The notes beneath the pieces were generated by a model. It saw only the letters and a list, made by a program, of their open reading frames with translations. It searched no databases and was not told the origin of the DNA. Both the position numbers and the translations under genes were made by a program. DNA of 64,000 bases, from positions 1,074,690 through 1,138,689 of the forward strand of contig OY969586.1 in assembly GCA_963701305.1 (NCBI GenBank). Direction: 5' to 3'. Shown piece by piece: positions 15,192-56,475 of this stretch. Numbering within the stretch: position 1 is the first letter of the stretch; every line of letters starts with the position of its first letter. Source of the DNA: Candidatus Aminicenantes bacterium. GTDB taxonomy: Bacteria > Acidobacteriota > Aminicenantia > Aminicenantales > CAVYOD01.

Positions 15192-15356
15192 GAAATTGTT
15201 CCTTGAGGTTTCCGCGCAATGTCCTCGCTGCGGAAACCTCAGAAAAATCAAATGAAGTCGTTTTTTATACCATACCCGGACCCCGCGGTCAAACGAGAGC
15301 TGCCCCAACCGGCTGGATTTCCGGGCCGGCGCCGCCCGCCTCTGTCCTCAGCACCT

Positions 15357-15923
15357 TTATTTTTTAGGACATTTAGCGACCCAGGGGCAGTTCTCGCAAT
15401 GGGAGTAGGCAAGGCTTTGATGAAAAGTCTCATTATGGAGAATCGAGCCGTCTTTGCTTTTCTCCATGATGTGAATTTCGCTGACCACAAAAGCCACAGC
15501 GTTTTTTACTCCCGATCGAATTGTCGTCCCCTCTGGAGGACCGCTCACGTAGACGGAGACCAATTTGAAGCTCAGTGTCTTCCCCTCGGCCCGCGTCTTC
15601 TTCCAAAATGCCGAGCTGTCTTGCCCGTAGATGATTTCAAAATTCTCTGTCGAAAGGACACCGAGACGCTCGACATAGAGATCGATCATCGCCTGGAAAT
15701 TCCCGGCCTGGAAACTGGAGCTGAGGAGCGCGTTATCTATCTCGATTTGCTTCGCTAGTGACTCCAGTGCTTCCGGCTTGATGGCCTGTGCCGCCTTACC
15801 GATGAGGCACAGCAGGTCTTTGAGCACTTGCCCGGGCGCGGCAGTCTGTTTCTGGGTCGAAACAGCGGGCAATGAAAAAAAGAAAAGCAAAATGACTCCC
15901 AGGACCCAACCTTTTGATTTCAT
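15357..15923 (-). CDS. Secreted hypothetical protein, 188 aa, ending in a Cys-rich tail (CENCPWVAKCPKK).
   Basis: Signal peptide MKSKGWVLGVILLFFFSLPAVS. No family recognised. Confidence 0.45.
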   Translation of the reverse strand: MKSKGWVLGVILLFFFSLPAVSTQKQTAAPGQVLKDLLCLIGKAAQAIKPEALESLAKQIEIDNALLSSSFQAGNFQAMIDLYVERLGVLSTENFEIIYGQDSSAFWKKTRAEGKTLSFKLVSVYVSGPPEGTTIRSGVKNAVAFVVSEIHIMEKSKDGSILHNETFHQSLAYSHCENCPWVAKCPKK

Positions 15924-16023
15924 AGATCCCTCCTTTTTGATGTTGATCTATCTTGATCTGTCCAACCCCCCTTGCGTCACCGGAGAAAGGACAGTTGATT
16001 CCCCCCTCTCTCAAGAGGCCGAG

Positions 16024-18618: not shown

Positions 18619-18735
18619 CGCCGTCCCTTTTTTGCTGTGCTTGCCTCAAATAAAGATAAGCTTGAGCCGACCAAATGTCAAATTCCGCAATTCAAGTGAG
18701 GAGTTGGATTTGCTGCTCAGTGCTTACTCCTCAAT

Positions 18736-18854
18736 CGTCTATCTGGTCTATCTCGTCCCTCGTCCTTCTCGTCAAGAGAAAGAACGCATTTGGTTCTTTC
18801 TTTTCGTAATTTTTTGTTGGGACAGACTAGATGACGAGAAAGACGAGAGAGACG
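18736..18854. repeat. Long imperfect inverted repeat (~22 bp arms with internal TCTATCTGGTCTATCTCGTC direct repeats) in the divergent promoter region.
   Basis: Left arm CGTCTATCTGGTCTATCTCGTCC at 18736..18773. Right arm GACAGACTAGATGACGAGAAAGACGAGAGAGACG at 18821..18854. About 19 of 22 positions are complementary. Confidence 0.4.
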
Positions 18855-18934
18855 TCCTTTGGTTTGAGATTCATTTTGGTCTGTGATATAAGCAATATCT
18901 TTATGTGATCTCAGGGTCCTTTTGAAGGAGGTCC

Positions 18935-27975: not shown

Positions 27976-28048
27976 AATCGTCTTTCCCCGCGAGTACGGA
28001 ATAAAACCTCGCCTGGTGTTGTATTATGTTTATCGAGGAGGACGAACG

Positions 28049-34000: not shown

Positions 34001-34036
34001 AGCCACTCTGAGAGCCTGGAGCTGGAGGTCAAGTAG
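28049..34036 (+). CDS. Bacterial alpha-2-macroglobulin family protein (about 1995 aa; MG domains plus thioester-type domain).
   Basis: Size, signal peptide, MG-domain motifs (PGQMIFFKGI) and a thioester-like box FPYECSEQ (CSEQ at 32432..32443, versus CLEQ/CGEQ consensus). Start set at ATG with GAGGAGG RBS. The ORF track begins at 28016. Confidence 0.8.
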   Translation: MISQSLRNIIAAVLFAALLITAGSVVKGRQAGPMQEKTTQELWKKVAEAEKSGLPKTAADYLKQIAAMALRQKRYGESLRALTRQIILESVIKGNKPEVRVARLQEEMEKAPAEMKPMMKLIQAQWYWHYYSRNKWRFMNRTATEGFDEKDFTTWDLPKLFRAIDFLYREILKDEADLKKEALSSWKNLLIEGNRPPALRPTVFDFAVFEALDFYTSGEQSALPEDAFFIQADSDALAPAGQFLKYVPETTDLDSPKLQALRLFQKVMSFHLEDGNRDVFLDADLQRLGFVKNVAAGEGASDRYLARLKEIAEASPSSELSSLALYHMAQELYDREQPVEAYALADRAQKSHPSSLGASNSRALLARITAKEFELRCEAVLRPGSPGKLGLEYRNISSLHLRVIQDDISALLARKDGESLLWPSNEFVRGLVRRAPAARWTASLKPTPDYKKKTAFLEIPPLKPGFYWIFASFRESFSWEENKVQVASFWVSDLGLVTRGVAGGLQGYVVRNQAGTPVESAEVTLYNWNYNSSAFQKVGSARTDNLGSFSLSLPDSYSNRIVLVREAQGAELAEVEVPSPSSRTENPTAICVFFTDRSMYRPGQMIFFKGICLSVDKAQNDYRLLPKQRARVAFRDVNHQEIANLDLVSNEFGSLSGTFIAPADRLTGQMTISTESPRGSCSVRVEEYKRPKFEVKLNVPAQEFRLNDQIALPGEAMAYTGAPVDGALVKYRVVREVQYPWWWFYWSGWSARSQSQEIAHGIMRTDETGKFSVGFQAKPDPSVPASSGPTFQYKAYVDVTDSAGETRSAQGGVRLGYASLEAGMGCRDWQETGKPVILSVTTTTLNYKKVAARGTIEVFNLNGPEKPVPADLIGEVAFREQEVSRGKTFQGLSDTADWKKWPEGRMAATKEFITSEKDDVPCTLPFDLKKGAYKAKLKTQDKYGTAVESYLYFIVLDPAENKFPLKIPFFNSSKGSTAEVGQTYETLWGTGHEKGPVLVEVFQNNAWRQRSWMPPQQTQGVLRVAVDESLRGGFTVAISMVKENRFYRSEQRVNVPWSNKVLDLRWLTFRSKLRPGQAETWSVQIKGPQMALRAAEMVATLYDASLDQFYRHGFPGMIGVFRTDWTYVASNFANRRHDLQTFVDLLNSYPSFISIIYVHFPPDIEEDAYGYAYPRAAREQLAASPAAAEKNKDLEGKVLGGVVGGVLGGVVGEAEAKKAAEIDLTSVQARKNLNETAFFYPHLLTDKKGVVTLEFKIPEALTQWRFLGFAHTKDLESGSLEATAVTQKELMVQPNPPRFLREGDNLEFTVKVTNMAEKEAEGAVELAFFDPRTEKPLDAALGNRTKKLAFTIPAKQSRSFSWPVAVPDGLDLVSYKAVAATPGFSDGEEGVLPILSRRLLVRESVPLWISDQGEKKFTFEKLVASAGSKTLRNIGLVVQMASNPAWYAVQALPFLMEFPYECSEQVFNRLYANSLAQKIANSNPKIRRIFDLWKGTEALKSNLEKNEDLKSVLLQETPWVLESKAETQAKHNIGLLFDENRMGLEIKQALGKLANMQLSDGSWPWFPGGRGNSYITLYILTGFGRLKHLEVSSVSQATAEKALGHLDGWIREIYEDIMRSGNQDQNHLSPVAALYLYGRSFYLTTRPIPEASRKAVDYFLKQGERYWLQLDCRMSQAHLALALKRFGDEPTAQKIMHSMKERSQLDQEMGRFWSELEYSWWWYRAPIETQSVMIEAFDEIMNDQKAVEECRVWLLKQKQTQDWKTTKATADAVYGLVLRGTDLLASDSIVEVSLAGKNIEPEKVEPGTGFYEKRFEPGVIVPAMGNILVKKADKGIAWGGVHWQYMEDVSKITPHSQNPLRLKKSVFAQRLTKKGPVIEPAQAPLHVGDTLIIRIELRTDRDMEYIHLKDHRGSGLEPVNVLSQYKYQGGLLYYESTKDTATHFFIDYLPKGTYVFEYPLRVVHRGAYQNGLAHIECMYAPEFNSHSESLELEVK

Positions 34037-43897: not shown

Positions 43898-45637
43898 GTG
43901 AAGGATGATTTCTCGGAGGAGGAAGTTATATTGAAGCGTTTTGCATGGGGCATTGTTTTTCTTGGTTTCGCAGCGTTTCTAGCCGCATCCGGCTCGGCGC
44001 CGGAGACAGCGGGATATGACATCATCATCAAGGGGGCCAAGATCGTCGACGGGACAGGAAACCCCTGGTTTTACGCGGATATCGCAATCCAGGGCGATTC
44101 TATCGCCGAAATAGGGGACCTCAGCGGAGTGAGCGCCAAGGCGGTGATCGATGCCAAGGGTCTGGTGGTTGCGCCCGGCTTTATCGACATGCACACTCAT
44201 TGCGATTTCAACATCGGGAACCCGGAGTGCAAGGCCAATCTCAACTACCTTTCTCAGGGTGTCACGACCGTTGTGACCGGGAACTGCGGCGGCGGACCCT
44301 TGCCTGTGGGAGAGACGGCGGCTCTCTGGGAAAAGCAGGGCATCGGAACGAACGCGGTCATCCTGATGGGGTTCGGGACCGTGAGACGGGCCGTCATCAA
44401 AAACGAGCCTCGAGCCCCGACTCCCGAAGAGCTCGAGAAAATGAAAGCGATTCTTCGTCAAGGTCTGAAGGAAGGGGCGTGGGGGATGAGCACCGGCCTG
44501 GAATACATACCGGACAGATACTCGAAGACGGAAGAAGTCATCGCCATGACAAAAGTTGTCGAAGAATTTGGTGGAATCTACACCAGCCACATGCGCGACG
44601 AATCCGCCGTCATTTGCGATGCCGTGAAGGAGACGATCCGGATCGGCGAGGAAACGGGCGTCAGGGTCAACATCGCCCACTTCAAAGTTTGCGGGAAAAA
44701 CAACTGGGGATTGATGAAGCAGGCGATCCATCTTGTTCAGGAAGCGAGGGCCCGCGGAATCTACGTCTCTGCCGACCAGTATCCCTATACCAAGTCCGCG
44801 CCCTTCGGCCCCGTCTGGGAAATCCCCGTCATCCCCGACAAAATGGAGCCGCTGACAGCCATCCACAAGAAAGGAAGAGAACTCTACCGTAAGCACGCCT
44901 CCGAAGCAGAGCTCAACAAGCTGAAAGAAGAATATGTATCGGAGCTGATCAAGGCCCTCGGGAATAAATCCAAGCGGGAGGAGATCAAGAAGATGACCCT
45001 CGAGGGGACGGCCAACGACCCCAGCCCGATTGCCATGTGGGGCTGGCACAATTATACAATCCTCATCTCCAGGAAAAACCCGCAGCTCAACGAAAAAAAC
45101 ATGAGCGACCTGATCCAGGAACAGAAGAGAGACGGGTTCGAGATTCTGGCCGATCTGATTATGGAGGAGCCCGATGCGTTCTATTCCGGAGGCGCCATGT
45201 CGGAAGACGAAGTCAGGGAGGCGATGAATCAGGACTGGGTCATGATCTCGAGCGATGGAGAGGCCGCGCCGATCGTCAAAGAGACGGATGCGCCCCAGGC
45301 GGGACATCCGCGATTGTTCGGAAGCCAATCCAAGATTCTGCGTGAGTATGTGCGCGAGGACAAAGTCCTCACTCTCGAAAACGCCGTCCGGAAGATGACC
45401 TCCCTTCCGGCCTCCTTCCTCCGAATGAAAGATCGCGGCCTTCTCCTGCGCGGTTATAAGGCCGACCTGGTTATTTTTAATCCGGAGACGATCAAAGACA
45501 ACGCGACCTTTATCGATTCCCAGAAATATTGTAGCGGCGTTGAATTTGTCATTCTGAACGGACGTATGAGTATCGAGAAAGGAAAATTCAACGATTCCCT
45601 GAACGGGAAGGTCTTGCTTCGCCAGGACTCGGAATAG
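43898..45637 (+). CDS. N-acyl-D-amino-acid deacylase (D-aminoacylase) family amidohydrolase, secreted.
   Basis: VIDAKGLVVAPGFIDMHTHCD metal-binding motif and typical D-aminoacylase length. The likely true start is the TTG at 43931 (GGAGGAGGAAG RBS 7 nt upstream), which gives the signal peptide MKRFAWGIVFLGFAAFLAA. Confidence 0.75.
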   Translation: MKDDFSEEEVILKRFAWGIVFLGFAAFLAASGSAPETAGYDIIIKGAKIVDGTGNPWFYADIAIQGDSIAEIGDLSGVSAKAVIDAKGLVVAPGFIDMHTHCDFNIGNPECKANLNYLSQGVTTVVTGNCGGGPLPVGETAALWEKQGIGTNAVILMGFGTVRRAVIKNEPRAPTPEELEKMKAILRQGLKEGAWGMSTGLEYIPDRYSKTEEVIAMTKVVEEFGGIYTSHMRDESAVICDAVKETIRIGEETGVRVNIAHFKVCGKNNWGLMKQAIHLVQEARARGIYVSADQYPYTKSAPFGPVWEIPVIPDKMEPLTAIHKKGRELYRKHASEAELNKLKEEYVSELIKALGNKSKREEIKKMTLEGTANDPSPIAMWGWHNYTILISRKNPQLNEKNMSDLIQEQKRDGFEILADLIMEEPDAFYSGGAMSEDEVREAMNQDWVMISSDGEAAPIVKETDAPQAGHPRLFGSQSKILREYVREDKVLTLENAVRKMTSLPASFLRMKDRGLLLRGYKADLVIFNPETIKDNATFIDSQKYCSGVEFVILNGRMSIEKGKFNDSLNGKVLLRQDSE

Positions 45638-45640
45638 TAA

Positions 45641-45717
45641 ATGGTAAGTGGCAAGGCGTCAGGGGTAAGACACAAAGATCAAGGAACAAGGTTAATTTTC
45701 AGTGGCTTACTCCTCAC
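45641..45717. repeat. REP-like element pair (GGTAAGTGGCAAGGCGTCAGGGGTAAGACAC ... CAGTGGCTTACTCCTCAC) between the D-aminoacylase and pylSc genes.
   Basis: Inverted GGGGTAAG / CTTACTCC arms, seen directly. Confidence 0.45.
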
Positions 45718-45727
45718 TTTCTTTGTG

Positions 45728-45756
45728 TTGACTTCGAGTGAGTCTGTTTTTACAAT
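45728..45756 (+). promoter_or_regulatory. Sigma70-like promoter for the pyl operon (-35 TTGACT, 17-bp spacer, -10 TACAAT).
   Basis: TTGACT at 45728..45733 and TACAAT at 45751..45756. The predicted transcript start is only ~8 nt before the pylSc ATG, giving a near-leaderless mRNA with no SD. Confidence 0.5.
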
Positions 45757-45771
45757 ACTTGACATAGACAC

Positions 45772-46602
45772 ATGATCGGCTGGACATCCTCTCAAAAGCA
45801 GCGCCTAAGAGAATTGAATGCCGACCCCGGCCTGCAGGAGAAAAACTTTTTGAGCTCTCGGGAACGAGACAAGGCCTTCCCTCTAGCCGAACGGCCACTC
45901 TGCCAAAGGAGCCTTCGGAAGCTACAGAAAATAAGGGAGAGCCGCAAACGGCCCAAGATCTGCAGATTGGAATCCAGGCTCATCCGCGCTCTCGTACGGG
46001 AAGGGTTCGTTCAGGTGACAACACCCATTCTGATCTCCCGGGGATCTCTGGAAAAAATGTCTATCGGAGAAAGCCACGAGCTGGCCAAGCAGGTCTTCTG
46101 GGTCGACGAGAACCGCTGCCTGCGGCCTATGCTGGCCCCTAACCTCTATTTTCTCCTGCGAGAGCTTGTCAAAGTCTGGGAGAAACCCGTTCGAATCTTC
46201 GAGGTGGGACCTTGTTTTCGCCGGGACAGCGCGGGGAAACACCACCTCAATGAATTCACGATGCTGAATCTGGTTGAACTCGGCCTCCCGGAAAAAACCA
46301 AGACGGAGAGGTTCGAGGAGCTGGCCGCTCTGGTCATGAAGACCGCCGGGATTCAGAATCATAAGTTTACCAGGCACCAGAGCGAGGTCTACGGCGAGAC
46401 AATCGACATCGATTCTACGATCGAGCTTGCTTCGGGGGTGATCGGCCCGAATCCGTTGGATTCCCGGTGGGAGGTCGTTGACAACTGGGTGGGCATCGGA
46501 GTCGGACTGGAGAGGCTGATCATGGTCAGCGAAAAGTATCAGAATATTCAGCGGGCTGGCCGGGCGCTTGTTTATCTGGACGGGATTCGGCTCAACATCT
46601 GA
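45772..46602 (+). CDS. pylS: Pyrrolysyl-tRNA synthetase catalytic (C-terminal) domain protein, PylSc.
   Basis: Near-collinear match to the PylS class II core: CLRPMLAPNLY, PVRIFEVGPCFRRDSAGKHHLNEFTMLN, VYGETIDI, ELASGVIGPNPLD, W.GIGVGLERL and the C-terminal GIRLNI (archaeal GISTNL). Confidence 0.88.
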   Translation: MIGWTSSQKQRLRELNADPGLQEKNFLSSRERDKAFPLAERPLCQRSLRKLQKIRESRKRPKICRLESRLIRALVREGFVQVTTPILISRGSLEKMSIGESHELAKQVFWVDENRCLRPMLAPNLYFLLRELVKVWEKPVRIFEVGPCFRRDSAGKHHLNEFTMLNLVELGLPEKTKTERFEELAALVMKTAGIQNHKFTRHQSEVYGETIDIDSTIELASGVIGPNPLDSRWEVVDNWVGIGVGLERLIMVSEKYQNIQRAGRALVYLDGIRLNI

Positions 46603-46639
46603 AAAGGACAAGGCCGCCCATTCATCAAGGAGGTTGCCA

Positions 46640-47287
46640 ATGGCTAAAGAAGAGATTCTCAAGGAAGCCGCAGAATCCATCATCAATCATGATAAGGCCA
46701 AGGCCGAAGAGGTTGCCAACCGCGCTTTGGCCCAGGGGCTGGACCCGCTCGAAGTCATAACGAGGGGATTCCGGGAGGGCATCATCCAGGTCGGAGATCT
46801 CTTCGGGCGAGGTGAAATCTTCATGCCGGAGCTCCTGGACGCCGCTGAGGCGATGAAAACTGCCAACACCATTCTCACGGCCGCACTGCCCGAAGGGGCG
46901 CAGCAAAAAAAGGGAAAAGTGGTTGTCGGGACGGTTCAGGGCGACATCCATGACATCGGAAAACTCCTGGTTGTTTCTCTTCTCCAGGTCAACGGATTTG
47001 ACGTTTTTGACCTCGGGCATGACGTCGAAATCGGGAAATTTATCGAAAAAGCCCTGGAAGTCGATGCCGATATCATCGGCACCAGCGCTCTCTTGACGAC
47101 GACCATGACCGGCCAAAAGACGCTCGAAGAGGAGCTGAGAAAGGGGGGCCTCAAGCCCCGCTTCAAGACGATGGTCGGAGGAGCCCCGGTGACACAGCGC
47201 TGGGCAGACCGGATCGGAGCCGATGCTTATGGAGAGGACGCGTCCGAGGCAGTCAAAAAGGCCCTCGAATTGATGGAGAAAAAGTAG
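46640..47287 (+). CDS. Methylamine-type corrinoid protein (MtbC/MtmC/MttC-like B12-binding protein).
   Basis: N-terminal helical cap, then a B12-binding Rossmann domain with the D-x-H-x-x-G box (GDIHDIGK) and a C-terminal ...ADAYGEDASEAVKKAL. Strong RBS AAGGAGG. The ORF track starts at 46568. Confidence 0.8.
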   Translation: MAKEEILKEAAESIINHDKAKAEEVANRALAQGLDPLEVITRGFREGIIQVGDLFGRGEIFMPELLDAAEAMKTANTILTAALPEGAQQKKGKVVVGTVQGDIHDIGKLLVVSLLQVNGFDVFDLGHDVEIGKFIEKALEVDADIIGTSALLTTTMTGQKTLEEELRKGGLKPRFKTMVGGAPVTQRWADRIGADAYGEDASEAVKKALELMEKK

Positions 47288-47299
47288 CTCCATAATCTC

Positions 47300-48415
47300 A
47301 TGCTTGATCAGCCCGTGTTCTCTTTAAAATTAGAAGACGTTCTGGGGAAGGCCCTGAGCCTGAGGGGCCTGACGGGTCCGGAAATCGTTTTCCTGCTGGG
47401 TCTCAAAGCAGAAGACGAGATCTGCCTCCTCTTTCAAACAGCCCAAGAGTTGAGGGAACGCTTTTTTGGCCCCAAGGTCTTCGCCTACGGATTCGTCTAC
47501 TTTTCGACCTATTGCCGCAACAATTGTCGGTTCTGTTCTTCGCGCATCTCCAATAAACAAAAATCACGATACCGGAAGACCGAATTCGAGATCAGGGAAG
47601 CGGCCTCGGGCCTGGCTGAATCGGGGGTCCACCTGATCGACCTGACCATGGGGGAAGATCCTCGTTATTACGGCCGCAGAGAAGAGTTCGAGGGCCTGGC
47701 CGAATTGGCCGCTGTCGTGAAACGCGAAACGGGCTTGCCGCTGATGATCTCTCCGGGCGCGGTCTCCGGGAAGACGCTCGGAGATTTCGCCCAAGCCGGA
47801 GTGGATTGGTACGCTTGCTACCAAGAAACGCACAACCGTCGGCTTTTCGATGAGTTGCGCCCCGGCCAGAGTTATGAGCGCCGCATGCTGAAGAAATACC
47901 GGGCCAGAGATTTGGGGATGCTGATCGAGGAGGGGATCATGGCCGGAGTCGGCGAGACCAGCCTGGATATCGCAGATTCCATCTCGGCCATGCGCGGGAT
48001 GGGCGCCCATCAGACCCGGGTCATGAGTTTCATCCCCCAGGACGGAACGCCCATGGTCGATAGACACTCTCCTCTGCGCCTCCGCGAACTTCTCATCATC
48101 GCCGTTCTTCGTCTTGCCTTTCCGGACCGGTTGATACCGGCCTCTCTGGATATCGACGGCCTGGCCTACCTGAAAGAGAGGCTCGAAGCCGGAGCCAATG
48201 TCGTCACTTCACTCATCCCACCGTCGATGGGGTTGTCCGGTGTTTCCCAGGCCAGTCTGGACATCAACGAAGGAAACAGAACGATCCAGGGAATTATCCC
48301 GGTCCTGGACGAGACCGGATTGGAGCTGGCCGACGCGGAGGACTACGGGAATTGGGTCGGAGAGGAAAGAAGGAAGCTTCGACGACAAAATCTCAACTGC
48401 GAGGCCGAGATTTGA
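47300..48415 (+). CDS. pylB: PylB, radical-SAM 3-methylornithine synthase (lysine mutase).
   Basis: CxxxCxxC radical-SAM box (YCRNNCRFC). BioB-like length of 371 aa. Position between pylS and pylC. Confidence 0.85.
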   Translation: MLDQPVFSLKLEDVLGKALSLRGLTGPEIVFLLGLKAEDEICLLFQTAQELRERFFGPKVFAYGFVYFSTYCRNNCRFCSSRISNKQKSRYRKTEFEIREAASGLAESGVHLIDLTMGEDPRYYGRREEFEGLAELAAVVKRETGLPLMISPGAVSGKTLGDFAQAGVDWYACYQETHNRRLFDELRPGQSYERRMLKKYRARDLGMLIEEGIMAGVGETSLDIADSISAMRGMGAHQTRVMSFIPQDGTPMVDRHSPLRLRELLIIAVLRLAFPDRLIPASLDIDGLAYLKERLEAGANVVTSLIPPSMGLSGVSQASLDINEGNRTIQGIIPVLDETGLELADAEDYGNWVGEERRKLRRQNLNCEAEI

Positions 48416-49578
48416 AAATCGCTGTGGTCGGGGGAAAGCTGCAGGGCACCGAGGCGACCTATCTTTCACACAAAGCGGGCTGGGAGGTCGTCCTGATCGA
48501 CAGGAGACCTACCGTGCCGGCGATGGGATTGGCCGACGAATTCCATCAAATCGACGTCGTCGACCAGGCCTCGAAGCTGCCTTCGATCCTGAAGAAAGCC
48601 GACCTTGTCATCCCGGCCGTCGAAGACGCGCTGGCGCTGCTGTCTTTAAGACTGGTGACCGAGCAAGAAAACATCCCCCTTGCCTATGACGAAGCCTCGT
48701 ATCGCGTGTCCTCATCGAAGATAAAATCCGACCGACTCTTCAAAGACCTCGACCTCGCCGCCCCTCGAGTCTGGCCTCGTTGCGACCCACCCTTTCTGGT
48801 CAAGCCATCCAGCGCGAGCGGAAGCCACGGCGTCCGCAAGATCAAAAACAGAGAGGACCTCGCTCCTTTTATTGCCGCAAGAGATACGCAGGGGGAGAGT
48901 TGGGTCGTCCAGGAATTCCTGGAGGGCCCTTCCTATTCTCTCGAAGTCTTGGGCTGTCGAAGAAAATTCGTCGACCTTCAGACGACGACAATCGAGGTGG
49001 ACACCCTCTATGATTGCAAGAGAGTCCTGGCACCGGCGGATCTTCCGCCGGTGTTGAAGGCCAATTTCGGCGACCTCGCCCGGAAGATCGCCGCCGATCT
49101 GGATCTTCGGGGGATCATGGACATCGAAGTCATCCTCCACCAGGGTCAGCTCAAGATCCTGGAGATCGATGCCCGCCTGCCGAGCCAGACCCCGACCGCA
49201 GTATATTGCTCAACGGGCATCAACATGATCGAGCTCCTCGTCGATATTTTTGCGCGGGGCTCGCTTCCCGATTCTCTCACCATCGATCAAGAAAAAGCGG
49301 TGATCTACGAGCACATCAAGGTCACGCCAGAGACGATCGAGGTCGCCGGCGAACACATCATGGCCGGGGCCGAACCTCTCAGAGTCCGGAAGGGCTTTTT
49401 TGGCGCGGACGAGGCCATCACAGATTTCAAACCGGGAAAAGCTGAGTGGGTGGCCACCTTGATCTTTGTCGGAAAAAGCCCTCAGAAGGTTCAGGCGCGG
49501 AGGGAAGCGACGATTAACGAACTCAAAAAATACTTTGGCTTAAACGTCTATAGGGACACGGTCCCCGGGAAAGATTGA
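48412..49578 (+). CDS. pylC: PylC, ATP-grasp 3-methylornithine--lysine ligase.
   Basis: The N-terminus KIAVVGGKLQGTEATYLSHKAGWEVVLIDRRP matches archaeal PylC (MKTICLIGGKLQGFEAAYLSKKAGMKVVLVDKNP). ATP-grasp core present. Probable TTG start overlapping the pylB stop (TTGA). The ORF track begins at 48352, inside pylB. Confidence 0.85.
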   Translation: MKIAVVGGKLQGTEATYLSHKAGWEVVLIDRRPTVPAMGLADEFHQIDVVDQASKLPSILKKADLVIPAVEDALALLSLRLVTEQENIPLAYDEASYRVSSSKIKSDRLFKDLDLAAPRVWPRCDPPFLVKPSSASGSHGVRKIKNREDLAPFIAARDTQGESWVVQEFLEGPSYSLEVLGCRRKFVDLQTTTIEVDTLYDCKRVLAPADLPPVLKANFGDLARKIAADLDLRGIMDIEVILHQGQLKILEIDARLPSQTPTAVYCSTGINMIELLVDIFARGSLPDSLTIDQEKAVIYEHIKVTPETIEVAGEHIMAGAEPLRVRKGFFGADEAITDFKPGKAEWVATLIFVGKSPQKVQARREATINELKKYFGLNVYRDTVPGKD

Positions 49579-49619
49579 TGCGTTCCTTCAATGATCTTAA
49601 ACGCCGGGTTGGGTAGGAA

Positions 49620-50492
49620 ATGACGCGCCTGACGACGGAATTTGTCCGTTCCATTCCAGACGATCTCCGTCTCTATGACCAGGGATTGCTCGAGAAGACC
49701 GGCCACAGCCTCCGACAGATTGCCTGCCGGGCCTCCCGAATCGAAGAATCGGAGATGGGCATGCTTCTTGGCTCAACACTCGTCGGGATCGTACCGGTGA
49801 CCTCGGGAGAAGGTAAGATCGAGGGCTTCTGTCAGGCTGTTCAGGGCATTACGAACCACCTCGGCGCCCCTTCGTTCGTGACGCGTCATCCGGACGTGGC
49901 CGGCTTGGCCGAAGCCGTCGAACGAAGAGCCGAGGTCATCTTCCTCGCCGATGATGGCAGATTCATCGCCCTGAACATGGTGTCCAGGACGGCCGTCGAC
50001 AATTCCGAAGCCACCGCCCGGGGATATCTCGCGGCCCTCGATTTCCTTGCGAAGGGGCTGAGGGGGAGGCCCGTCCTGGTCATAGGCGCAGGCCGGGTTG
50101 GGGGAGAAGCGCTTTCCGTCCTTCAAGAGTACGGAGCACGGCCGGGAGTCTATGATCCCGACGACAGGAAAACCCGGCCCCTCGAATCGGGAAGCATGAT
50201 CATCATCGAAAGAGATCTGGAGAAGGCTCTGGAAAAATATTCTCTCCTTCTCGAAGCCTCTCCGGCCTCAGCGATCATTCAGGAGAGACACATAAAGCCT
50301 GATACTATGATTGCCGCTTGCGGCATCCCGCTGGGGTTGAGCCCCGCGGCCGCGGTCCTCGTCCGGGAGCGTTTGATCCATGATCCCTTGCAGATCGGTG
50401 TGGCCGCCATGTTGACGATGGCGCTCACGAGGCGGAGGAATAAAGTGTGGGGGGTAGATCGGAAAGATCCCATAGACCCTAAATCTATGTAG
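49620..50492 (+). CDS. pylD: PylD, pyrrolysine synthase (NAD-dependent dehydrogenase).
   Basis: GIVPVTSGEGKIEGFCQAVQGITNHLGAPSFVTRHPDVAGLAEAVERRAEVIFLADDGRFIALNM is collinear with archaeal PylD (VGIVPVTSGNGIIGNFSASL...DMPDVSGYYEAVQNGAEIILMADDRTFLAHN). Rossmann GAGRVGG. A C-terminal ~20-aa extension reads into the pylT gene. Confidence 0.85.
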   Translation: MTRLTTEFVRSIPDDLRLYDQGLLEKTGHSLRQIACRASRIEESEMGMLLGSTLVGIVPVTSGEGKIEGFCQAVQGITNHLGAPSFVTRHPDVAGLAEAVERRAEVIFLADDGRFIALNMVSRTAVDNSEATARGYLAALDFLAKGLRGRPVLVIGAGRVGGEALSVLQEYGARPGVYDPDDRKTRPLESGSMIIIERDLEKALEKYSLLLEASPASAIIQERHIKPDTMIAACGIPLGLSPAAAVLVRERLIHDPLQIGVAAMLTMALTRRRNKVWGVDRKDPIDPKSM

Positions 50493-50521
50493 CCGGGTGA
50501 AACTCCCGGACTCCCCGCCAC
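50450..50521 (+). tRNA. pylT: tRNA-Pyl (pylT), anticodon CUA, with the CCA end encoded.
   Basis: Manual fold: acceptor GGGGGGT/ACTCCCC (7 bp, one G-U); one nt (A); D-stem GATC/GATC with a 5-nt loop GGAAA; one nt (C); 6-bp anticodon stem CATAGA/TCTATG; loop CCCTAAA (anticodon CTA at 50480..50482); 3-nt variable loop TAG; T-stem CCGGG/CCCGG with loop TGAAACT; discriminator G; then CCA. These are the hallmark tRNA-Pyl features (6-bp anticodon stem, short D-loop, 3-nt variable loop, single nt between acceptor and D stems). Confidence 0.78.
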
Positions 50522-50578
50522 AACGATATAGATAGCGCAGTCGGCGAAACCAAAGGTTTCGCGACCGAGGCCGAGACG

Positions 50579-50908
50579 ATGACCGAGAAGATCAAGGAAA
50601 AATACTATCGAAAGCAGACCGACTTCTTTTTGCTGCTCGACAAGATCAAGCTTTGGCCGTCCCGAAAAGGTCTTCTTCACGGTGTCAAAGTCCTCGAGAT
50701 CAAAGGATCTCTGGCTGAGGTCACCACTCATTGCGACCGGACGTTCCGAGTTCGCTACTCACGGCACAGCCGGGCCGCCCGGTGGCTGCGCAACAAATGG
50801 CACAAGGGCCCCTGCCGGGAGTGCCAGATTCCCGACTGGAAACTCGAAAAATACGAGAAGACATATTTTGACCAACATCGAGGGTCAACCCTGAGAGGCA
50901 AGGACTGA
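50579..50908 (+). CDS. pylSn: PylSn, stand-alone N-terminal tRNA-Pyl-binding domain of the split pyrrolysyl-tRNA synthetase.
   Basis: LWPSRKGLLHGVKVLEIKGSLAEVTTHCDRTFRVRYSRHSRAARWLRNKWHKGPCRECQIP aligns with the archaeal PylS N-terminus ([61 protein letters not shown]), including the zinc-ligand Cys/His positions. Confidence 0.82.
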   Translation: MTEKIKEKYYRKQTDFFLLLDKIKLWPSRKGLLHGVKVLEIKGSLAEVTTHCDRTFRVRYSRHSRAARWLRNKWHKGPCRECQIPDWKLEKYEKTYFDQHRGSTLRGKD

Positions 50909-50939
50909 TGAATCCAGAAAAAAAGGAGGTGAAAAAGAC

Positions 50940-52325
50940 ATGTCGAAAATCAGAACCAGAATGGGAGATGCGTCTGTTGTCGAGGTCACCGAGGGCCGGC
51001 TCCGGGCCGACTTAGAGGAGGGAACGAAAGATGCGGCTCAACGGGGGAAAATTCCGCCGTTGTCGCAGGATGAGCTGAACCATCTGTATGATATCTACAG
51101 CGCGCCTTCAAGAGTGGTCGGCGTGGAGCCGGGCAACGAGGTCGTCTTCACCTATGACTCCACGGTGGGCGAAATCCAGCGCACCCTTATCCCTGTGAAC
51201 AGAATCCAGTCACTGCAGATGTTCGAGCGGATGTTGGGCGCGGACACAGTCGAACTGGCTCATAATGATTACAGCTTCAAAGCCGTAAAGCCCATCATCA
51301 GCGATGAACGCACCGCCCTGGAGCAAGCCCTTTTGGTGACGACGGTGCCCGTGCTCTACGGCGCCATGCCTAACCTCGGGCTCTATAATAAGCCCGAAGG
51401 CCCAGTTCCGAATTCCTCAAAACTGATGTCCGAAGGAAAAATCAAGGAAGCCAGAGCGTCCATGGAAGAGGCCATCGAATTTGCGATCCGGGATATGGTC
51501 TATGTGGCCAGCGAACTTTACGAATCCGGCGTCGACGCGATCGATTTTGACACCACGGGCTCGGCCGGTGATCCCGATTTTTTGGCCACGCTGAAAGCCG
51601 TCGAAATCCTGAAGAAAAAGTATCCTGATATCTGCGTCGAAATGGGAATGTCCGGAGAGTTTATCCTGGGAATGCACGGCGGACTGACTTATGACGGGAC
51701 CAGGTTGGCCGGGCTCTACCCGCACCAGCAGGTGAAGCTGGCCGAGAAAGCGGGCGTCACAATCTTCGGCCCGGTCGTCAACACGAACACGAGCAAAACC
51801 TGCGCCTGGAACGCGGCCCGAGTCATCACCTTCCTGAAGACCTGTGTAGAACAATCCAACATTCCCGTGCACGCGAATATGGGGATGGGTGTGGGCGGAC
51901 TTCCTGTGACCCCCTTCGTGCCTATTGACGCGGTTTCGAGGGCATCGAAGGCCGTTGTCGAGTTGACGAGACTGGACGGGTTGTAGGTGGGCGTAGGCGA
52001 TGTTCTCGGCATGGCCGCGACTCATGCGATCGCTTCGGGCATGGGCGGGATGCGCACTGCCGGAGATCTGGTGGCGCGCATGCAAATGTCCCGGGGCCTG
52101 AGAATCCGACAAGCCAAAGAGTACGTGGCCGGCAAACTGAAAATTAGCCCCATCGATCTGGCCGATCCGTTGATCATGTCAGAAATCAGAGAGGACTTGA
52201 AGCTGGGCCTGATCAATCCTCCTCCCAACTACGCGGTTGGGATCGAGGCCAAGTTCCATGTCGCCGCGCTTTTGGGAATCGAAATCCGGAGCCTCAAACG
52301 CTTCAAGGAAAAGGCGGGCCTTTGA
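50940..52325 (+). CDS. mtbB: Dimethylamine:corrinoid methyltransferase MtbB. A single in-frame UAG is read as pyrrolysine (codon 349). The ORF track splits it at 51986.
   Basis: Both halves are collinear with archaeal MtbB: RMGDAS..., GAMPNLGLYNKPEGP, VVNTNTSKTCAWNAARVITFLK, ...[17 protein letters not shown][TAG][51 protein letters not shown] (MtbB reads ...[53 protein letters not shown]...). Both ORFs are in the same frame. RBS AAGGAGGTG. Confidence 0.85.
51984..51986 (+). other. In-frame amber (UAG) codon predicted to encode pyrrolysine in mtbB.
   Basis: A TAG in frame joins ORFs 50940..51986 and 51987..52325 exactly at the conserved Pyl position of MtbB homologs. Confidence 0.8.
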
Positions 52326-52330
52326 GAGCT

Positions 52331-52346
52331 GCTCCCCAAAGGGAGC
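52331..52346 (+). terminator. Small hairpin GCTCCC-CAAA-GGGAGC, 6 nt after the mtbB stop. Possible weak terminator with no U-tract.
   Basis: Seen directly. It lacks a T-run, so confidence is low. Confidence 0.25.
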
Positions 52347-52386
52347 TGGCTTAAAAAGACTTATTAAACGGGCAGGGGAAAAGGAT

Positions 52387-52504
52387 GGGGACGTTCCCCA
52401 AGGGGACACCCTTGGGGAACGTGAGTCTTGGATGAAATTCCGCATTGCTGTATAGTTTTGCTCGAAGGCCGAAGGGTGTCCCCGTGGGGAACGTCCCTCA
52501 GTTT
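52387..52504. repeat. MITE-like inverted-repeat element, copy B. The left arm alone forms a perfect 14-bp hairpin.
   Basis: Left GGGGACGTTCCCCAAGGGGACACCCTTGGGGAACGTGAG at 52387..52425. Right GGGTGTCCCCGTGGGGAACGTCCCTCAGTTT at 52474..52504. Related copies at 35235 and 61617. Confidence 0.55.
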
Positions 52505-52533
52505 ATTCAGATAGACCAGGAAGGAGACACAGA

Positions 52534-54921
52534 ATGAGAGTTCGCGCCCTGATATTCATGGTTATGGTTACTTTGCTTTCGATGCTCACGCCGCTCGCCG
52601 GCCAACAGCAACTCACCCGTGATGATTATGCTCGGGCGGAGCGCTTTCTCATGTGGAACATCAACAAGCTGGTCTTCAAATTGAAGGTCACTCCCCACTA
52701 CGTCGGAAAAACAGACCGATTCTGGTACAAGAACGAGACCCGCGAGGGGAAGGAATTTGTCCTCGTCGACCCGGTGCTCAACACGCGGCAGCCCGCCTTT
52801 GACCAGGCCAGGCTTGCCGCGGGTCTCTCCACGGCCTCGGGGAAGGCCTATGAACCGATGAAACTTCCTTTTGAGATATTCGAATATGCGAGAGATGGGA
52901 AAGCCATCCAGTTCGATATCGAAAAAACGCGCTGGACTTGCGATCTCGGGACCTACGCCTGCACAAAAAGCGATGCGTCCAAAGCCATAGACGAGGGAGA
53001 GAGTCTCTCCCCGGACGGCCGCTGGGCGGCTTTCGTCAAAGACCACAATCTTTATGCCAGACCCACGGCGGGCGGGGCGGAGGTCCAGCTCACGACCGAT
53101 GGTGAGGCCTATTACGATTACGGCACCGAAACCGAGCAGAGCACATCCGCCGTGACCGTCCGGCTGAGCGGCAAAAAACAGCCTCCGGTTCTTCTCTGGT
53201 CCCCCGATTCCAAGAAGATTCTCACCCACAAGCTCGACCAGAGAAAAGTCGAGCCGCTCTACCTTCTCCAATCTGCACCGCCTCAAGGCTTTGGAAGGCC
53301 CGCTCTCCACACCTATCGTTTCGCCATGGTCGGTGATAAGAACCTTCCGCTCGCGGAGATGGTCATCATCGATGTCGAGCAGAAAAAACTATCGCCCTTT
53401 AAGGGCAAGCCGTTCGTGCTAAACTTCATGTCACCCGTCACGATGCAGCAGGTTTGGTGGGGCGAGGACAGCCGGAACGTTTATGCCATCGAGGAAGAGC
53501 GCGCCTATAAGGCGGTCCGTCTCTGGTCCGCCGATGCGGTCTCGGGAGAGACCCGACTCCTCGTCGAGGAAAAGGGCTCGACCTTCGTCGATCTCAACCT
53601 CATGGAATTCCGGCCGAATGTCCGGATCCTGGGAATCGGGTCAGAGATCATCTGGTTCTCCGAGCGCGACGGCTGGGCCCATCTCTATCTTTATGACGGC
53701 AAAACCGGGGCCCTCAAGAACCAGATCACCAGGGGGCCATGGGTTGTCCGCGACATCCTTCTCGTCGACGAAACAAATCGGTGGGTTTACTTTACAGGGG
53801 GCGGCCGGGAAAAGGGCCGTGATCCGTATTTTCAGCATCTTTACAGGGTGAAGCTGGATGGCTCCATGACTCAGCTATTGACCCCAGAAGACGCCGAACA
53901 CTCGCTCTCAACCATGCCGACGAATCCGGGCTCTCTGGAAATGCAGAGCACATTTTCACCATCGGGTCGCTATTTTGTGGATTCCTACTCCCGCCTCGAC
54001 ATGGCTCCTGTATCAGTGGTCCGGGACTCGGAGGGCCGGCTCGTCCGGGATCTCGAAAAGGGGGATGTCGATCTTCTGCTCGCCACCGGATGGAAATGGC
54101 CGGAGAGATTTTCGGTCAAGGCAAGGGACGGAGTCACGGATCTCTACGGCACCATCTATAAACCCACGAACTTTGACCCTGCGAAGAAATATCCGGTCAT
54201 TGACGGAATCTATCCCGGCCCTCAGGTCATCCGGACTCCGAAAGCCTTCGGCTCCGACCTCTTCTCTATCTACGAGCTCAGCGAGGACGTTTCTCTGGGG
54301 GAGCTGGGGTTTATCGTGGTCAACATCGATGGGCTGGGCACTCCCCTTCGCTCGAAAGCGTTTCATGATTTCTGCTATGGAAAGATGGAAGACGCCGGAG
54401 GGCTTGAAGACCACATCACCGGACTCAGGCAGCTGGCGGCTTCCAGGCCGTATATGGACCTCAGCCGGGTCGGTATTTACGGCCACTCGGGCGGAGGGTT
54501 CGCCTCGACGCATGCCATTCTGGCCTACCCTGACTTCTATAAGGTGGCCGTCTCCTCGGCCGGGAACCATGACCAAAGAGGATACCTGGCCGGCTGGGGC
54601 GAAAAATACCAGGGATTGCTCGAAGGGGACAATTACAAAGCCCAAGCAAACTTGGGCCTGGCCGCCAACCTCAAGGGAAAACTGCTTTTGGCCCACGGCG
54701 ACATGGACGACAACGTCCATCCCTCGCTGACCATGCAGGTCGTCGACGCTCTTATCAAAGCCAACAAGGACTTCGACCTTCTCATCTTGCCCAACCGGAA
54801 CCATGGCTTTTCTGTGGATCCTTACTTCACCCGGCGCAAGTGGGATTATTTTGTCCGGCACCTTTTGGGTGCCGAGCCTCCCCAGGGCTATGAGATCAAA
54901 ATGGGCAAATTGAATTTTTGA
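52534..54921 (+). CDS. S9-family serine peptidase (dipeptidyl aminopeptidase / acylaminoacyl-peptidase-like; beta-propeller plus alpha/beta hydrolase), secreted.
   Basis: Signal peptide. Nucleophile elbow GHSGGGF. C-terminal Asp/His region (AHGDMDDNVH, NRNHGF). Confidence 0.75.
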   Translation: MRVRALIFMVMVTLLSMLTPLAGQQQLTRDDYARAERFLMWNINKLVFKLKVTPHYVGKTDRFWYKNETREGKEFVLVDPVLNTRQPAFDQARLAAGLSTASGKAYEPMKLPFEIFEYARDGKAIQFDIEKTRWTCDLGTYACTKSDASKAIDEGESLSPDGRWAAFVKDHNLYARPTAGGAEVQLTTDGEAYYDYGTETEQSTSAVTVRLSGKKQPPVLLWSPDSKKILTHKLDQRKVEPLYLLQSAPPQGFGRPALHTYRFAMVGDKNLPLAEMVIIDVEQKKLSPFKGKPFVLNFMSPVTMQQVWWGEDSRNVYAIEEERAYKAVRLWSADAVSGETRLLVEEKGSTFVDLNLMEFRPNVRILGIGSEIIWFSERDGWAHLYLYDGKTGALKNQITRGPWVVRDILLVDETNRWVYFTGGGREKGRDPYFQHLYRVKLDGSMTQLLTPEDAEHSLSTMPTNPGSLEMQSTFSPSGRYFVDSYSRLDMAPVSVVRDSEGRLVRDLEKGDVDLLLATGWKWPERFSVKARDGVTDLYGTIYKPTNFDPAKKYPVIDGIYPGPQVIRTPKAFGSDLFSIYELSEDVSLGELGFIVVNIDGLGTPLRSKAFHDFCYGKMEDAGGLEDHITGLRQLAASRPYMDLSRVGIYGHSGGGFASTHAILAYPDFYKVAVSSAGNHDQRGYLAGWGEKYQGLLEGDNYKAQANLGLAANLKGKLLLAHGDMDDNVHPSLTMQVVDALIKANKDFDLLILPNRNHGFSVDPYFTRRKWDYFVRHLLGAEPPQGYEIKMGKLNF

Positions 54922-54927
54922 CCAAAT

Positions 54928-55035
54928 GGTGAGTCGTGGGCACTGAGCAGTGAGAAGAAAGGGAGCGGGAACAAGAGGACAGCGATCCGGCTTGAATTCT
55001 TTGCTCCTCACCCCTGACCCCTTACCCCTCACTGT
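54928..55035. repeat. REP-like element pair (GGTGAGTCGTGGGCACTGAGCAGTGAGAAG ... CTCCTCACCCCTGACCCCTTACCCCTCACTG) downstream of the S9 peptidase gene.
   Basis: Shares the CACTGAGC..GTGAG and CCCCTTACCCC cores with the other copies. Confidence 0.45.
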
Positions 55036-55074
55036 CCCTGTGCGAGAGACGATACCTTGAGAAGGAGGATGCTG

Positions 55075-56475
55075 ATGGCAAACTTCACAAAGAAGCTTGG
55101 TATTCTTGGGATCATAGTGTTGCTCTTGACCGGTTTCTTGGCCTTTGCTCAGGAAAAGGCCCAGGACAAGCGGAAAGCCCTCGACCCGAAAACACCGACA
55201 ACCGATGACCCCCGGCGGATTCCCGTGCCGCCGGGTCCACGCGGGCCGGAGGGTGTTCTCGTCCTCCGGGGGGGGCGCATCTTTGACGGCACGGGCGCTC
55301 CGGTGCGGCCCGGGACTCTTGTCATCCGGCGAAACAAAATTGACAAAGTCCTCCCGGCCGGGTCCGCCGACTGGCCGAAAGAGGCGCGGGTCATTGATCT
55401 TGCGGGGAAAACGGTCCTGCCGGGGCTGATCGACGCCCACACCCATATCGACTACGCCGAGCCCGGAGCCTCATTCCTGATGGAGATCAGCGAGGCCGAC
55501 GCCATGCTCCGGGCCGTCGAAAAGGCGCGGTTCTTTTTGGAGTGCGGCATCACCAGTATCCGGGACGTCGGCTCGTTGCACAACGTCCCCTTCCGGCTCA
55601 AGGAGTGGGTTTCACAGAACCGTGTCCCCGGCCCGCGCATCTTTGCCGCCGGAGCATTCATCACCTCGACCGGCGGCCACGGCGCAGAGGGAATCGACCC
55701 GGACATCCTCGTGCCCAAGAGCACCCGGATCGCCGAGGGCCCGGACGAGTGGAGGCAGGCCGTCCGGGAGCAGTTCAACCGCGGCGCCGACCTCATCAAG
55801 ACAGGTAGTCATTTCAGCCGCGAGGAGATCGGAGCCGCCGTAGAAGAAGCACACGCCCTGGGACTCAAAGTGGCCTGCGACGCCGAGACTTTTTACATCC
55901 GCTGGGCGGCCGAGGCCGGAGTCGACGTCATCGAGCATCCATTGCCCCGGACCGATGAGACGATCCAGCTTATGGCCCAAAAAGGCACCCAATCTGTGCC
56001 CACGCTCGTCCCCTACACCTATATCTTTGACCAGTCCGGCGGATACTTTTTCTCAACTTCACGCCGATTCACTTTCTCCAAGGAGGCCAACCTCGAAGTC
56101 CTCCGCCGCATGAAAAAAGCCGGAATCAAAATGGGAATCGGCACCGACCTGGTGACAGATTGGTTCCGCTACCTCCCGATCCCCTACATCAGCGAGCTCA
56201 AATATTTTGTCCAGGCCGGGTACACGATGGGCGAGGCCCTCGTGGCCGGGACCAAAACCAACGCCGAGATCCTGGATATGGATGATAAGCTCGGGACGCT
56301 GGAATCGGGAAAGCTTGCCGACGTCACTGTCATCGATGGAAAGCCGGACGAGAATCTGGACGACCTCGCCAAAGTGGACCTGGTCATCCGGGACGGGTTT
56401 CTCGTCGTCAAGGGAGGCGAAGTCGTTATACCGCGACACGTTCCCATCATACCGCCCCAGCCCAAAACCAAATAA
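55075..56475 (+). CDS. Amidohydrolase-family metallo-hydrolase (imidazolonepropionase / Xaa-Pro dipeptidase-like), secreted.
   Basis: Signal peptide. LPGLIDAHTHID metal-binding motif. RBS GAAGGAGG. The ORF track begins at 55057. Confidence 0.7.
   Translation: MANFTKKLGILGIIVLLLTGFLAFAQEKAQDKRKALDPKTPTTDDPRRIPVPPGPRGPEGVLVLRGGRIFDGTGAPVRPGTLVIRRNKIDKVLPAGSADWPKEARVIDLAGKTVLPGLIDAHTHIDYAEPGASFLMEISEADAMLRAVEKARFFLECGITSIRDVGSLHNVPFRLKEWVSQNRVPGPRIFAAGAFITSTGGHGAEGIDPDILVPKSTRIAEGPDEWRQAVREQFNRGADLIKTGSHFSREEIGAAVEEAHALGLKVACDAETFYIRWAAEAGVDVIEHPLPRTDETIQLMAQKGTQSVPTLVPYTYIFDQSGGYFFSTSRRFTFSKEANLEVLRRMKKAGIKMGIGTDLVTDWFRYLPIPYISELKYFVQAGYTMGEALVAGTKTNAEILDMDDKLGTLESGKLADVTVIDGKPDENLDDLAKVDLVIRDGFLVVKGGEVVIPRHVPIIPPQPKTK

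Follow-up and report, generated by a model that had tools for sequence, protein, structure and literature searches.

A probable MtbC-type corrinoid protein gene embedded in the pyrrolysine cassette of a Candidatus Aminicenantes genome

Bacterial pyrrolysine (Pyl) genes have been published in the order pylT-pylSc-pylB-pylC-pylD-pylSn (PMC3941956), and the cassette is also described in PMC2933860. In a stretch of 64,000 nucleotides from a Candidatus Aminicenantes bacterium (assembly GCA_963701305.1, contig OY969586.1, positions 1,074,690 to 1,138,689; called the window here, with positions counted from its first letter), a gene for a corrinoid protein stands between pylSc and pylB. Why should a B12 carrier be encoded inside the machinery for Pyl? 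Our answer is that the gene probably encodes an MtbC-type methyl carrier for the dimethylamine methyltransferase MtbB and would be one cistron of a 6.6-kb operon, co-expressed with the Pyl machinery. The embedded arrangement is conserved in one lineage of pyl cassettes and is not peculiar to this genome.

The corrinoid gene occupies positions 46640–47287 of the + strand. It runs from an ATG start to a TAG stop, translates without an internal stop and is thus an intact open reading frame of 215 residues. Two Pfam domains were identified in the protein: B12-binding_2 (PF02607) at residues 7–79 (E 9.8e-19) and B12-binding (PF02310) at residues 92–205 (E 1.1e-24). This is the two-domain layout of the TIGR02370 group, a helical cap and a Rossmann-type B12-binding domain in about 210–220 residues. 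The NCBIfam model of the group, named methyltransferase cognate corrinoid protein, was matched at 235.8 bits, above its cutoff of 215.3 (E 2.7e-70). By their E-values these matches are far past chance, and within its known family the protein is unremarkable. The motifs of base-off/His-on cobalamin binding are found as D102-I-H104-D-I-G107, S149-A-L151 and G180-G181, the first within a GDIHDIGK box at residues 101–108 (bases 46940–46963). D102, H104, G107, S149, L151 and G180 are unchanged in 21 of 21 embedded homologues in the alignment. From sequence, the protein is predicted to bind a cobamide and to be methylated by a methyltransferase. We also considered a CarH-like regulator and rejected it: the protein is without a DNA-binding domain, and the CarH model gave 39.8 bits against a cutoff of 400.

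A Shine–Dalgarno sequence (AAGGAGG) is seen at 46627–46633, 6 nt 5′ of the ATG. The gene lies 37 nt 3′ of pylSc and 12 nt 5′ of pylB. A sequence-only reading of this stretch had described a complete MtbC/MtmC-type corrinoid protein with a GDIHDIGK box and a strong Shine–Dalgarno sequence, placed between pylSc and pylB. All of this was borne out, with the two neighbours clearing their family models (see below) and the coordinates exact.

The last gene of the unit is mtbB (50940–52325), which lies 3.65 kb downstream of the corrinoid gene on the same strand and encodes a dimethylamine:corrinoid methyltransferase. Its match to TIGR02368 comes in two parts, an N-terminal one of 380.1 bits over profile positions 7–355 and a C-terminal one of 114.9 bits over positions 357–464. 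An in-frame UAG (51984–51986, codon 349) corresponds to position 356 of the 466-position profile, which is the exact break of the match and the conserved Pyl position. At this UAG begins a PYLIS_2-like element (51984–52083, + strand; Rfam RF02509, 64.4 bits against a gathering score of 36, E 3e-13). The in-frame UAG together with the PYLIS_2 match therefore places the presumptive cognate methyltransferase in the apparent operon of the corrinoid gene. The sequence-only reading had set a carrier inside the pyl genes against the usual place beside the methyltransferase gene. The first half of that stands, as the published order lacks such a gene; the implied separation does not, as a Pyl-containing mtbB ends the unit.

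The gene order on the + strand is pylSc, corrinoid gene, pylB, pylC, pylD, pylT, pylSn and mtbB. The catalytic subunit of pyrrolysyl-tRNA synthetase, of 276 residues, is encoded by pylSc (45772–46602, TGA stop; TIGR02367, 333.7 bits, cutoff 178), and methylornithine synthase, of 371 residues, by pylB (47300–48415; TIGR03910, 459 bits). The likely TTG start of pylC (48412–49578; TIGR03909, 453 bits) overlaps the TGA of pylB in the sequence TTTGA and gives a protein that begins MKIAVVGGK; the TIGR03909 match begins at residue 23 of the longer pylC frame (48352–49578). PylD has 290 residues (49620–50492, TAG stop; TIGR03911, 241.7 bits over residues 2–265). ARAGORN identified pylT, the tRNA-Pyl with anticodon CUA, at 50449–50520, and pylSn (50579–50908; TIGR03912, 119.2 bits, cutoff 51) encodes the tRNA-binding small subunit of the synthetase, of 109 residues. 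The successive spacings are 37 nt, 12 nt, a 4-nt overlap, 41 nt, pylT over the end of pylD, 58 nt and 31 nt. The bacterial Pyl cassette is complete, with pylT, pylSc, pylSn, pylB, pylC and pylD intact and 5/5 protein models above their cutoffs. The uninterrupted canonical order is absent: the corrinoid gene follows pylSc, and pylT stands between pylD and pylSn. As a separate observation, pylT overlaps the final 44 nt of the pylD frame, so that the pylD stop falls within the tRNA gene, and excision of tRNA-Pyl from a polycistronic RNA would sever pylSn-mtbB from pylSc-pylD.

Distribution of the embedded order

A PylSc alignment was made from representatives clustered at 50% identity, and one genome per species was scanned. 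At least 569 PylS loci were confirmed. Gene order was called by tblastn and ARAGORN and classed for the best 80 loci, which are those nearest to the query PylSc (loci of this survey and of the metagenomic contexts below are labelled L001 and so on where they need to be told apart). The gene after pylSc is the corrinoid gene in 19 of them, pylB in 32, pylD in 9, pylC in 5 and pylSn in 5, with other, unknown or no call in the remaining 10. Because the sample is biased towards PylSc similar to the query, 19/80 is not a population frequency. Database relatives of the corrinoid protein number more than 100 at 69–97% identity, and the few named ones are labelled Aminicenantes, Aerophobetes or Acidobacteriota. 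All 6 of their metagenomic contexts examined, among which an Aerophobetes label is found, have the order pylSc-corrinoid-pylB-pylC-pylD-(pylT)-pylSn-mtbB. The genome loci with the embedded order come from metagenome-assembled genomes (MAGs) labelled Aminicenantes, ‘Eubacteriales’, Dehalococcoidales (Dehalococcoidia), Spirochaetes, Deltaproteobacteria, Syntrophobacterales and Thermodesulfobacteriota; these labels span at least 5 phyla. A comparison of gene order across bacterial pyl loci had been proposed with the sequence-only reading, and the 19/80 loci and 6/6 metagenomic contexts are its outcome.

The embedded loci have further features in common. Their pylT, wherever it was detected, is downstream of pylD and in most cases stands directly between pylD and pylSn; the great majority of canonical loci with a detected pylT have it just upstream of pylSc. 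With the window counted among the de-duplicated embedded loci, 17 have mtbB in the cassette, where it follows pylSn or lies just upstream of pylSc. In a neighbour-joining tree of PylSc, 23 of 23 embedded loci fall in one clade of 29 leaves, and none of the 55 other leaves is embedded; the bootstrap of this clade is only 42%. The simplest reading is that a single rearrangement gave rise to a second architecture of the cassette, with inheritance and probably exchange between phyla thereafter. Recent horizontal acquisition in the Aminicenantes genome was rejected: the GC fraction of the cassette (0.555–0.578, flanks 0.54–0.58) and the skew are without anomaly, and there is no sign of recent insertion.

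The closest genome match is L008 (Candidatus Aminicenantes MAG MFD04408.bin.2.57), with 97% identity in PylSc and 98% in the corrinoid protein. Its pylB, pylC, pylD and mtbB gave many split tblastn matches, which look like assembly frameshift errors and not real pseudogenes. L010, a complete Aminicenantes chromosome, had the look of a truncated cassette, but runs of N mask that part of it and make it uninformative, and this candidate was dropped.

Transcription anatomy

The best match to a promoter consensus in 45000–53000 is TTGACT-17 nt-TACAAT at 45728–45756 of the + strand (10/12 positions), a putative promoter of the unit. It ends 16 nt upstream of the pylSc ATG and would leave a very short 5′ untranslated region. 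From the −35 hexamer to this ATG, the sequence is nearly unchanged in the close relatives L007 and L008; the part of the intergenic region further upstream has diverged past alignment. With the −10 hexamer 16 nt from the ATG and no Shine–Dalgarno sequence visible for pylSc (45700–45775), the pylSc mRNA may be nearly leaderless. A conserved CTCCTCACTTTCTTTGTG block lies directly upstream of the −35 hexamer.

The gaps flanking the corrinoid gene were scanned for sigma-70-type promoter-like and terminator-like sites, and none was found in either. The RNA folding of both junctions is no better than that of shuffled sequence (z = +1.1 and −0.6). Across 45000–53000, terminator-like sites are not above shuffles (13 against 9.8 ± 3.2). 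Hairpins after mtbB (52326–52500, + strand) are the likely 3′ end of the unit: a short hairpin right after the stop is followed by an imperfect inverted repeat at about 52386–52500. The RNA fold of 52326–52533 has −88.3 kcal/mol (z = −5.1), none of 200 shuffles was as good, and terminator-like matches lie at 52485–52500. The inverted repeat is long, contains repeated GGGGAACGT / ACGTTCCCC motifs and stands between mtbB and a DPP-IV-like gene; a terminator and a repeated palindromic element are the candidate readings. An Rfam search for riboswitches and other RNA regulators gave nothing but PYLIS_2 at the gathering threshold over the whole window. At E ≤ 1 over 45400–52700, it added one chance match of a miRNA model on the hairpin after mtbB.

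This anatomy points to one operon, in which the corrinoid gene would be co-transcribed with the pyl genes. No promoter or terminator that would isolate the gene was seen in either gap, a test that had been put forward with the sequence-only reading. That reading had also suggested that expression of the B12 carrier is coupled to Pyl synthesis. The 37-nt and 12-nt gaps, with nothing isolating in them, agree with this, and it is from the anatomy that we infer the coupling itself. Alternatively, the corrinoid gene might be expressed on its own from an unrecognised promoter, its adjacency to the pyl genes being a rearrangement without regulatory meaning. The scan took in sigma-70-type sites only, and the gap between pylSc and the corrinoid gene is 130–280 nt in L002, L015, L017, L058, L070 and L082, which is room for a promoter. 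Against this, the gaps in the window are short and carry neither a promoter-like or terminator-like match nor significant structure. That the order has been kept across phyla at only 54–77% protein identity also speaks for selection on this layout. We regard independent expression as very unlikely.

The junction with pylB needs separate consideration. No ribosome-binding site is evident at the usual distance before pylB, which begins 12 nt past the corrinoid stop; this suits translational coupling and is a further point against independent expression. The corrinoid gene is directly upstream of pylB in the same reading frame, with the TAG and four sense codons between them, and Pyl-tRNA(CUA) is produced from the corrinoid gene's own operon. 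An open in-frame link of this kind is also present in L007 and L008 and, with a 23-codon spacer, in L001, L012 and L014. On this evidence, the corrinoid protein could bind B12 as a partner to PylB, a radical-SAM enzyme, and act in Pyl synthesis in this way, UAG read-through even giving a fusion of the two. However, cassettes without a corrinoid gene are the published norm and account for 32 of the 80 loci here, and pylTSBCD alone suffices for Pyl incorporation in Escherichia coli (PMC2933860). The protein is, moreover, homologous over its full length to methyltransferase carriers (206 residues aligned with MttC, 50% identical). That it acts in Pyl synthesis seems very improbable.

The narrower proposal is that the corrinoid UAG (47285–47287) is a site of programmed, Pyl-dependent read-through. 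Ribosomes would pass the TAG when charged tRNA-Pyl accumulates, giving a 591-residue MtbC-Pyl-PylB fusion with a B12 domain and a radical-SAM domain. If true, the fusion could feed back on Pyl synthesis or on the carrier level. The TAG stop is not special, however. The 39 window genes have TAG in 13 cases, TGA in 15 and TAA in 11, and TAG ends pylD as well. The in-frame link is missing in L005, L009, L011 and most embedded loci of other labelled phyla. We give programmed read-through very little credence.

Partner and proposed working of the corrinoid protein

The best substrate-specific NCBIfam model for the corrinoid protein is that of MtbC (NF041607; residues 12–211), at 209.9 bits against an equivalog cutoff of 350 set for archaeal MtbC. 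By this score it is not a member of the archaeal MtbC equivalog as defined. The MtaC model gave 129 bits, also below its equivalog cutoff. Among solved structures, the best match is MttC of Methanosarcina barkeri (PDB 7xcn_M, 215.9 bits, residues 3–208 aligned), followed by a Moorella protein (166.1 bits) and MtmC (144.7 bits).

An alignment was built from four PDB sequences and 64 corrinoid sequences of the fetched loci, each of the 64 classed by its genomic context. The window protein is 54–98% identical to other embedded corrinoids, 51–60% to corrinoids beside mtbB in canonical pylSc-pylB loci and 54–61% to those just upstream of pylSc. For M. barkeri, the figures are 50% with MttC (206 residues) and 40% with MtmC. 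Corrinoids adjacent to mttB have a median of 41% (range 38–68%). Those above about 50% are Aminicenantes-type second corrinoid genes (52–54%) and L018 (68%), and those of Bacillota and Desulfobacterales reach at most about 46% (median about 40%). In the neighbour-joining tree, the embedded corrinoids are interspersed among those encoded beside mtbB or upstream of pylSc, and they fall outside a clade of Moorella and mttB-adjacent Bacillota and Desulfobacterales sequences (91% bootstrap). The assignment to a methylamine-type carrier made in the sequence-only reading agrees with the best model, the best structure and the nearest non-embedded relatives, and the closest homology is not to non-methylamine corrinoids. 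Of the three clades that it named for a phylogeny (MtbC, MtmC and MttC), MtmC is the more distant one by identity, and the trees do not separate MtbC from MttC. Genomic context would make the protein MtbC-like.

For the pairing of MtbB with the corrinoid protein, the route of the methyl group and the reason for joint regulation, we build on the methylamine methyltransferase systems summarised in PMC5424206 and PMC2933860. Transcription would start at the conserved promoter-like site before pylSc. PylB, PylC and PylD would convert lysine to pyrrolysine, and PylSc and PylSn would charge tRNA-Pyl(CUA) with it. UAG codon 349 of mtbB would then be read as Pyl, which would give full-length MtbB. Through MtbB, a methyl group of dimethylamine would pass to the Co(I) of the corrinoid protein. 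The methyl-Co(III) form would be unloaded by a methyltransferase encoded outside the window, which is of the tetrahydrofolate type or the MtbA type in relatives, and a reductive activase of the RamA/RACo type, encoded elsewhere, would keep the corrinoid protein active. With the suppressor machinery, client enzyme and carrier on one promoter, all of them would go on and off together and in proportion.

The stop codons of the window bear on this last point. With 13 of 39 genes ending in TAG, there is no amber avoidance despite a complete Pyl system, and amber suppression is probably costly for the same reason. Pyl decoding thus probably needs to be conditional, and one promoter would achieve this. 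A precedent is Acetohalobium arabaticum, in which, as cited in PMC9723677, UAG is not avoided and Pyl decoding is on only with its methylamine substrate.

Several observations weigh against this assignment, besides the shortfall of the NF041607 score and the chance that an internal promoter outside the sigma-70 consensus escaped our scan. The deep nodes of the corrinoid neighbour-joining trees are weak (40–47% bootstrap), so that MtbC and MttC affinity is not separable by sequence alone, and the tree references are without Methanosarcina MtbC. L058 has the embedded gene, yet no mtbB within 3.8 kb downstream. In L005, L006 and L010, an MttB-family gene without its own corrinoid gene lies directly upstream of pylSc, and in L005 and L010 the embedded carrier may therefore serve more than one methyltransferase. 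The approximately 39 window genes scanned include neither an unloading methyltransferase nor RamA/RACo, which leaves the pathway incomplete within the window.

Helper genes are found beside the cassettes of relatives. L058 has a Pterin_bind protein and RACo directly after pylSn (15315–18876). L001 (1–7018) and L089 (1–9039) have RACo, a protein with a homocysteine S-methyltransferase domain and genes for carbon monoxide dehydrogenase/acetyl-CoA synthase (CODH/ACS) upstream of the cassette; both also have an MttB-family gene, called as a single uninterrupted product, and a further corrinoid gene. L005 (16330–19559) has two URO-D (MtbA/MtaA-type) genes and a corrinoid gene, and L088 likewise has URO-D genes. 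These genes suggest that tetrahydrofolate and the Wood–Ljungdahl pathway are the likely sink in at least some lineages.

The MttB-family genes allow another reading of the carrier. It may be shared, or may mainly serve substrates other than dimethylamine, with a non-pyrrolysine MttB-family enzyme for quaternary amines (for example, glycine betaine) as partner and the locus as a remnant of an ancestral mttB-pylSc-corrinoid arrangement. The upstream gene of L005 is called as one uninterrupted product of 492 residues, and the corrinoid of L018, beside an mttB-like gene, groups with the embedded clade. The MtgC models NF047995 and NF047996 match the window protein too (188.6 and 167 bits), although these scores are below the MtbC score and below their own cutoffs of 310 and 370. 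No MttB-family gene is found in the window, so that a shared carrier, though plausible in L005 and L010, is not plausible in this locus. In L001, L009, L011, L014 and L089, the upstream mttB-like gene has a separate corrinoid gene (52–54% identical) besides the embedded one. In nearly all loci long enough for judging, mtbB goes with the embedded gene. We consider a shared carrier, or a main partner other than MtbB, unlikely in the window and retain the assignment as carrier for MtbB.

Relation to known systems and neighbouring genes

The best structural match, M. barkeri MttC (PDB 7XCN chain M), shares with the window protein the two-domain fold family, the length and the cobalamin-binding motifs, and like the proposed carrier it serves a Pyl-containing methylamine methyltransferase. 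It differs in being archaeal, in being encoded beside mttB outside the pyl operon and in its substrate, trimethylamine, whereas the methyltransferase of the present operon belongs to the MtbB (dimethylamine) family. With archaeal MtbC (NF041607), the common feature is the MtbB partner; the window protein differs in being bacterial, in the place of its gene between pylSc and pylB and in its score below the equivalog cutoff.

As to the cassette, the Desulfitobacterium hafniense type has the same six components, a split PylS and pylSn after pylD. Compared with it, the window has the corrinoid gene inserted, pylT moved between pylD and pylSn, and mtbB appended. In Methanosarcina, pylTSBCD stands beside mtmBC, so that the Pyl machinery is likewise linked to genes of a methylamine methyltransferase and its corrinoid protein. 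That methyltransferase operon is adjacent to the pyl genes and transcribed separately (PMC2933860), in contrast to the window, where client genes stand among the pyl genes within what appears to be a single transcription unit. A. arabaticum resembles the window in the conditional logic that we propose for this locus on the strength of its 13/39 TAG stops. It differs in the order pylSn-pylSc-pylBCD and in its substrate, trimethylamine (PMC2933860, PMC9723677).

Clustering of pyl genes with mtxB and mtxC genes is published, and their joint horizontal transfer has been proposed (PMC5424206). The literature also has the general statement that bacterial pyl clusters ‘can be interrupted’. In the full-text literature, we found no description of the order pylSc-mtbC-pylBCD-pylT-pylSn-mtbB or of its phyletic spread; subscription-only papers lay outside this search, and a prior description is possible.

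The genes around the cassette were also inspected. Upstream of pylSc lies a gene for an amidohydrolase of 579 residues (Amidohydro_3; 43898–45637), for which the best NCBIfam model is NF006560, ‘amidohydrolase family protein’ (212 bits, below its cutoff). A related amidohydrolase (54% identity) is found downstream of mtbB in L001 (13906–15645), L011 and L014. An amidohydrolase adjoining the cassette in several Aminicenantes lineages could reflect either rearrangement or a functional link, for example the release of an amine substrate. The cassette flanks (24514–45637 and 52534–56475) are dense in genes of peptide and amino-acid catabolism. They encode three beta-lactamase-fold or D-aminopeptidase-like proteins, an S15 peptidase, DPP-IV, an Xaa-Pro dipeptidase-like amidohydrolase, a proline racemase, an L-Ala-D/L-Glu epimerase-like enolase and an aminotransferase. 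Other window genes include kinases, peptidases and amidohydrolases, and a bacterial alpha-2-macroglobulin of 2006 residues with MG2, A2M and bMG10 domains is encoded at 28016–34036.

The locus is a conserved, hitherto under-described second form of the Pyl cassette and a gene-order variant of a known system. Since it was known from the literature that pyl and mtxBC genes cluster, what the locus adds is of a descriptive and evolutionary kind; conceptually it is unsurprising, and its use is the insight that it gives into the organisation, regulation and spread of Pyl cassettes. As a compact natural operon, the unit is also a candidate for heterologous expression. With the client enzyme MtbB and its B12 carrier interleaved with the tRNA, synthetase and biosynthesis genes, it would be a self-contained plug-in for dimethylamine use. 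Joint switching of its parts would explain how an amber suppressor is tolerated where UAG stops end one third of the genes. The locus also extends the potential for dimethylamine demethylation to Aminicenantes and to other uncultured lineages of sediment and soil.

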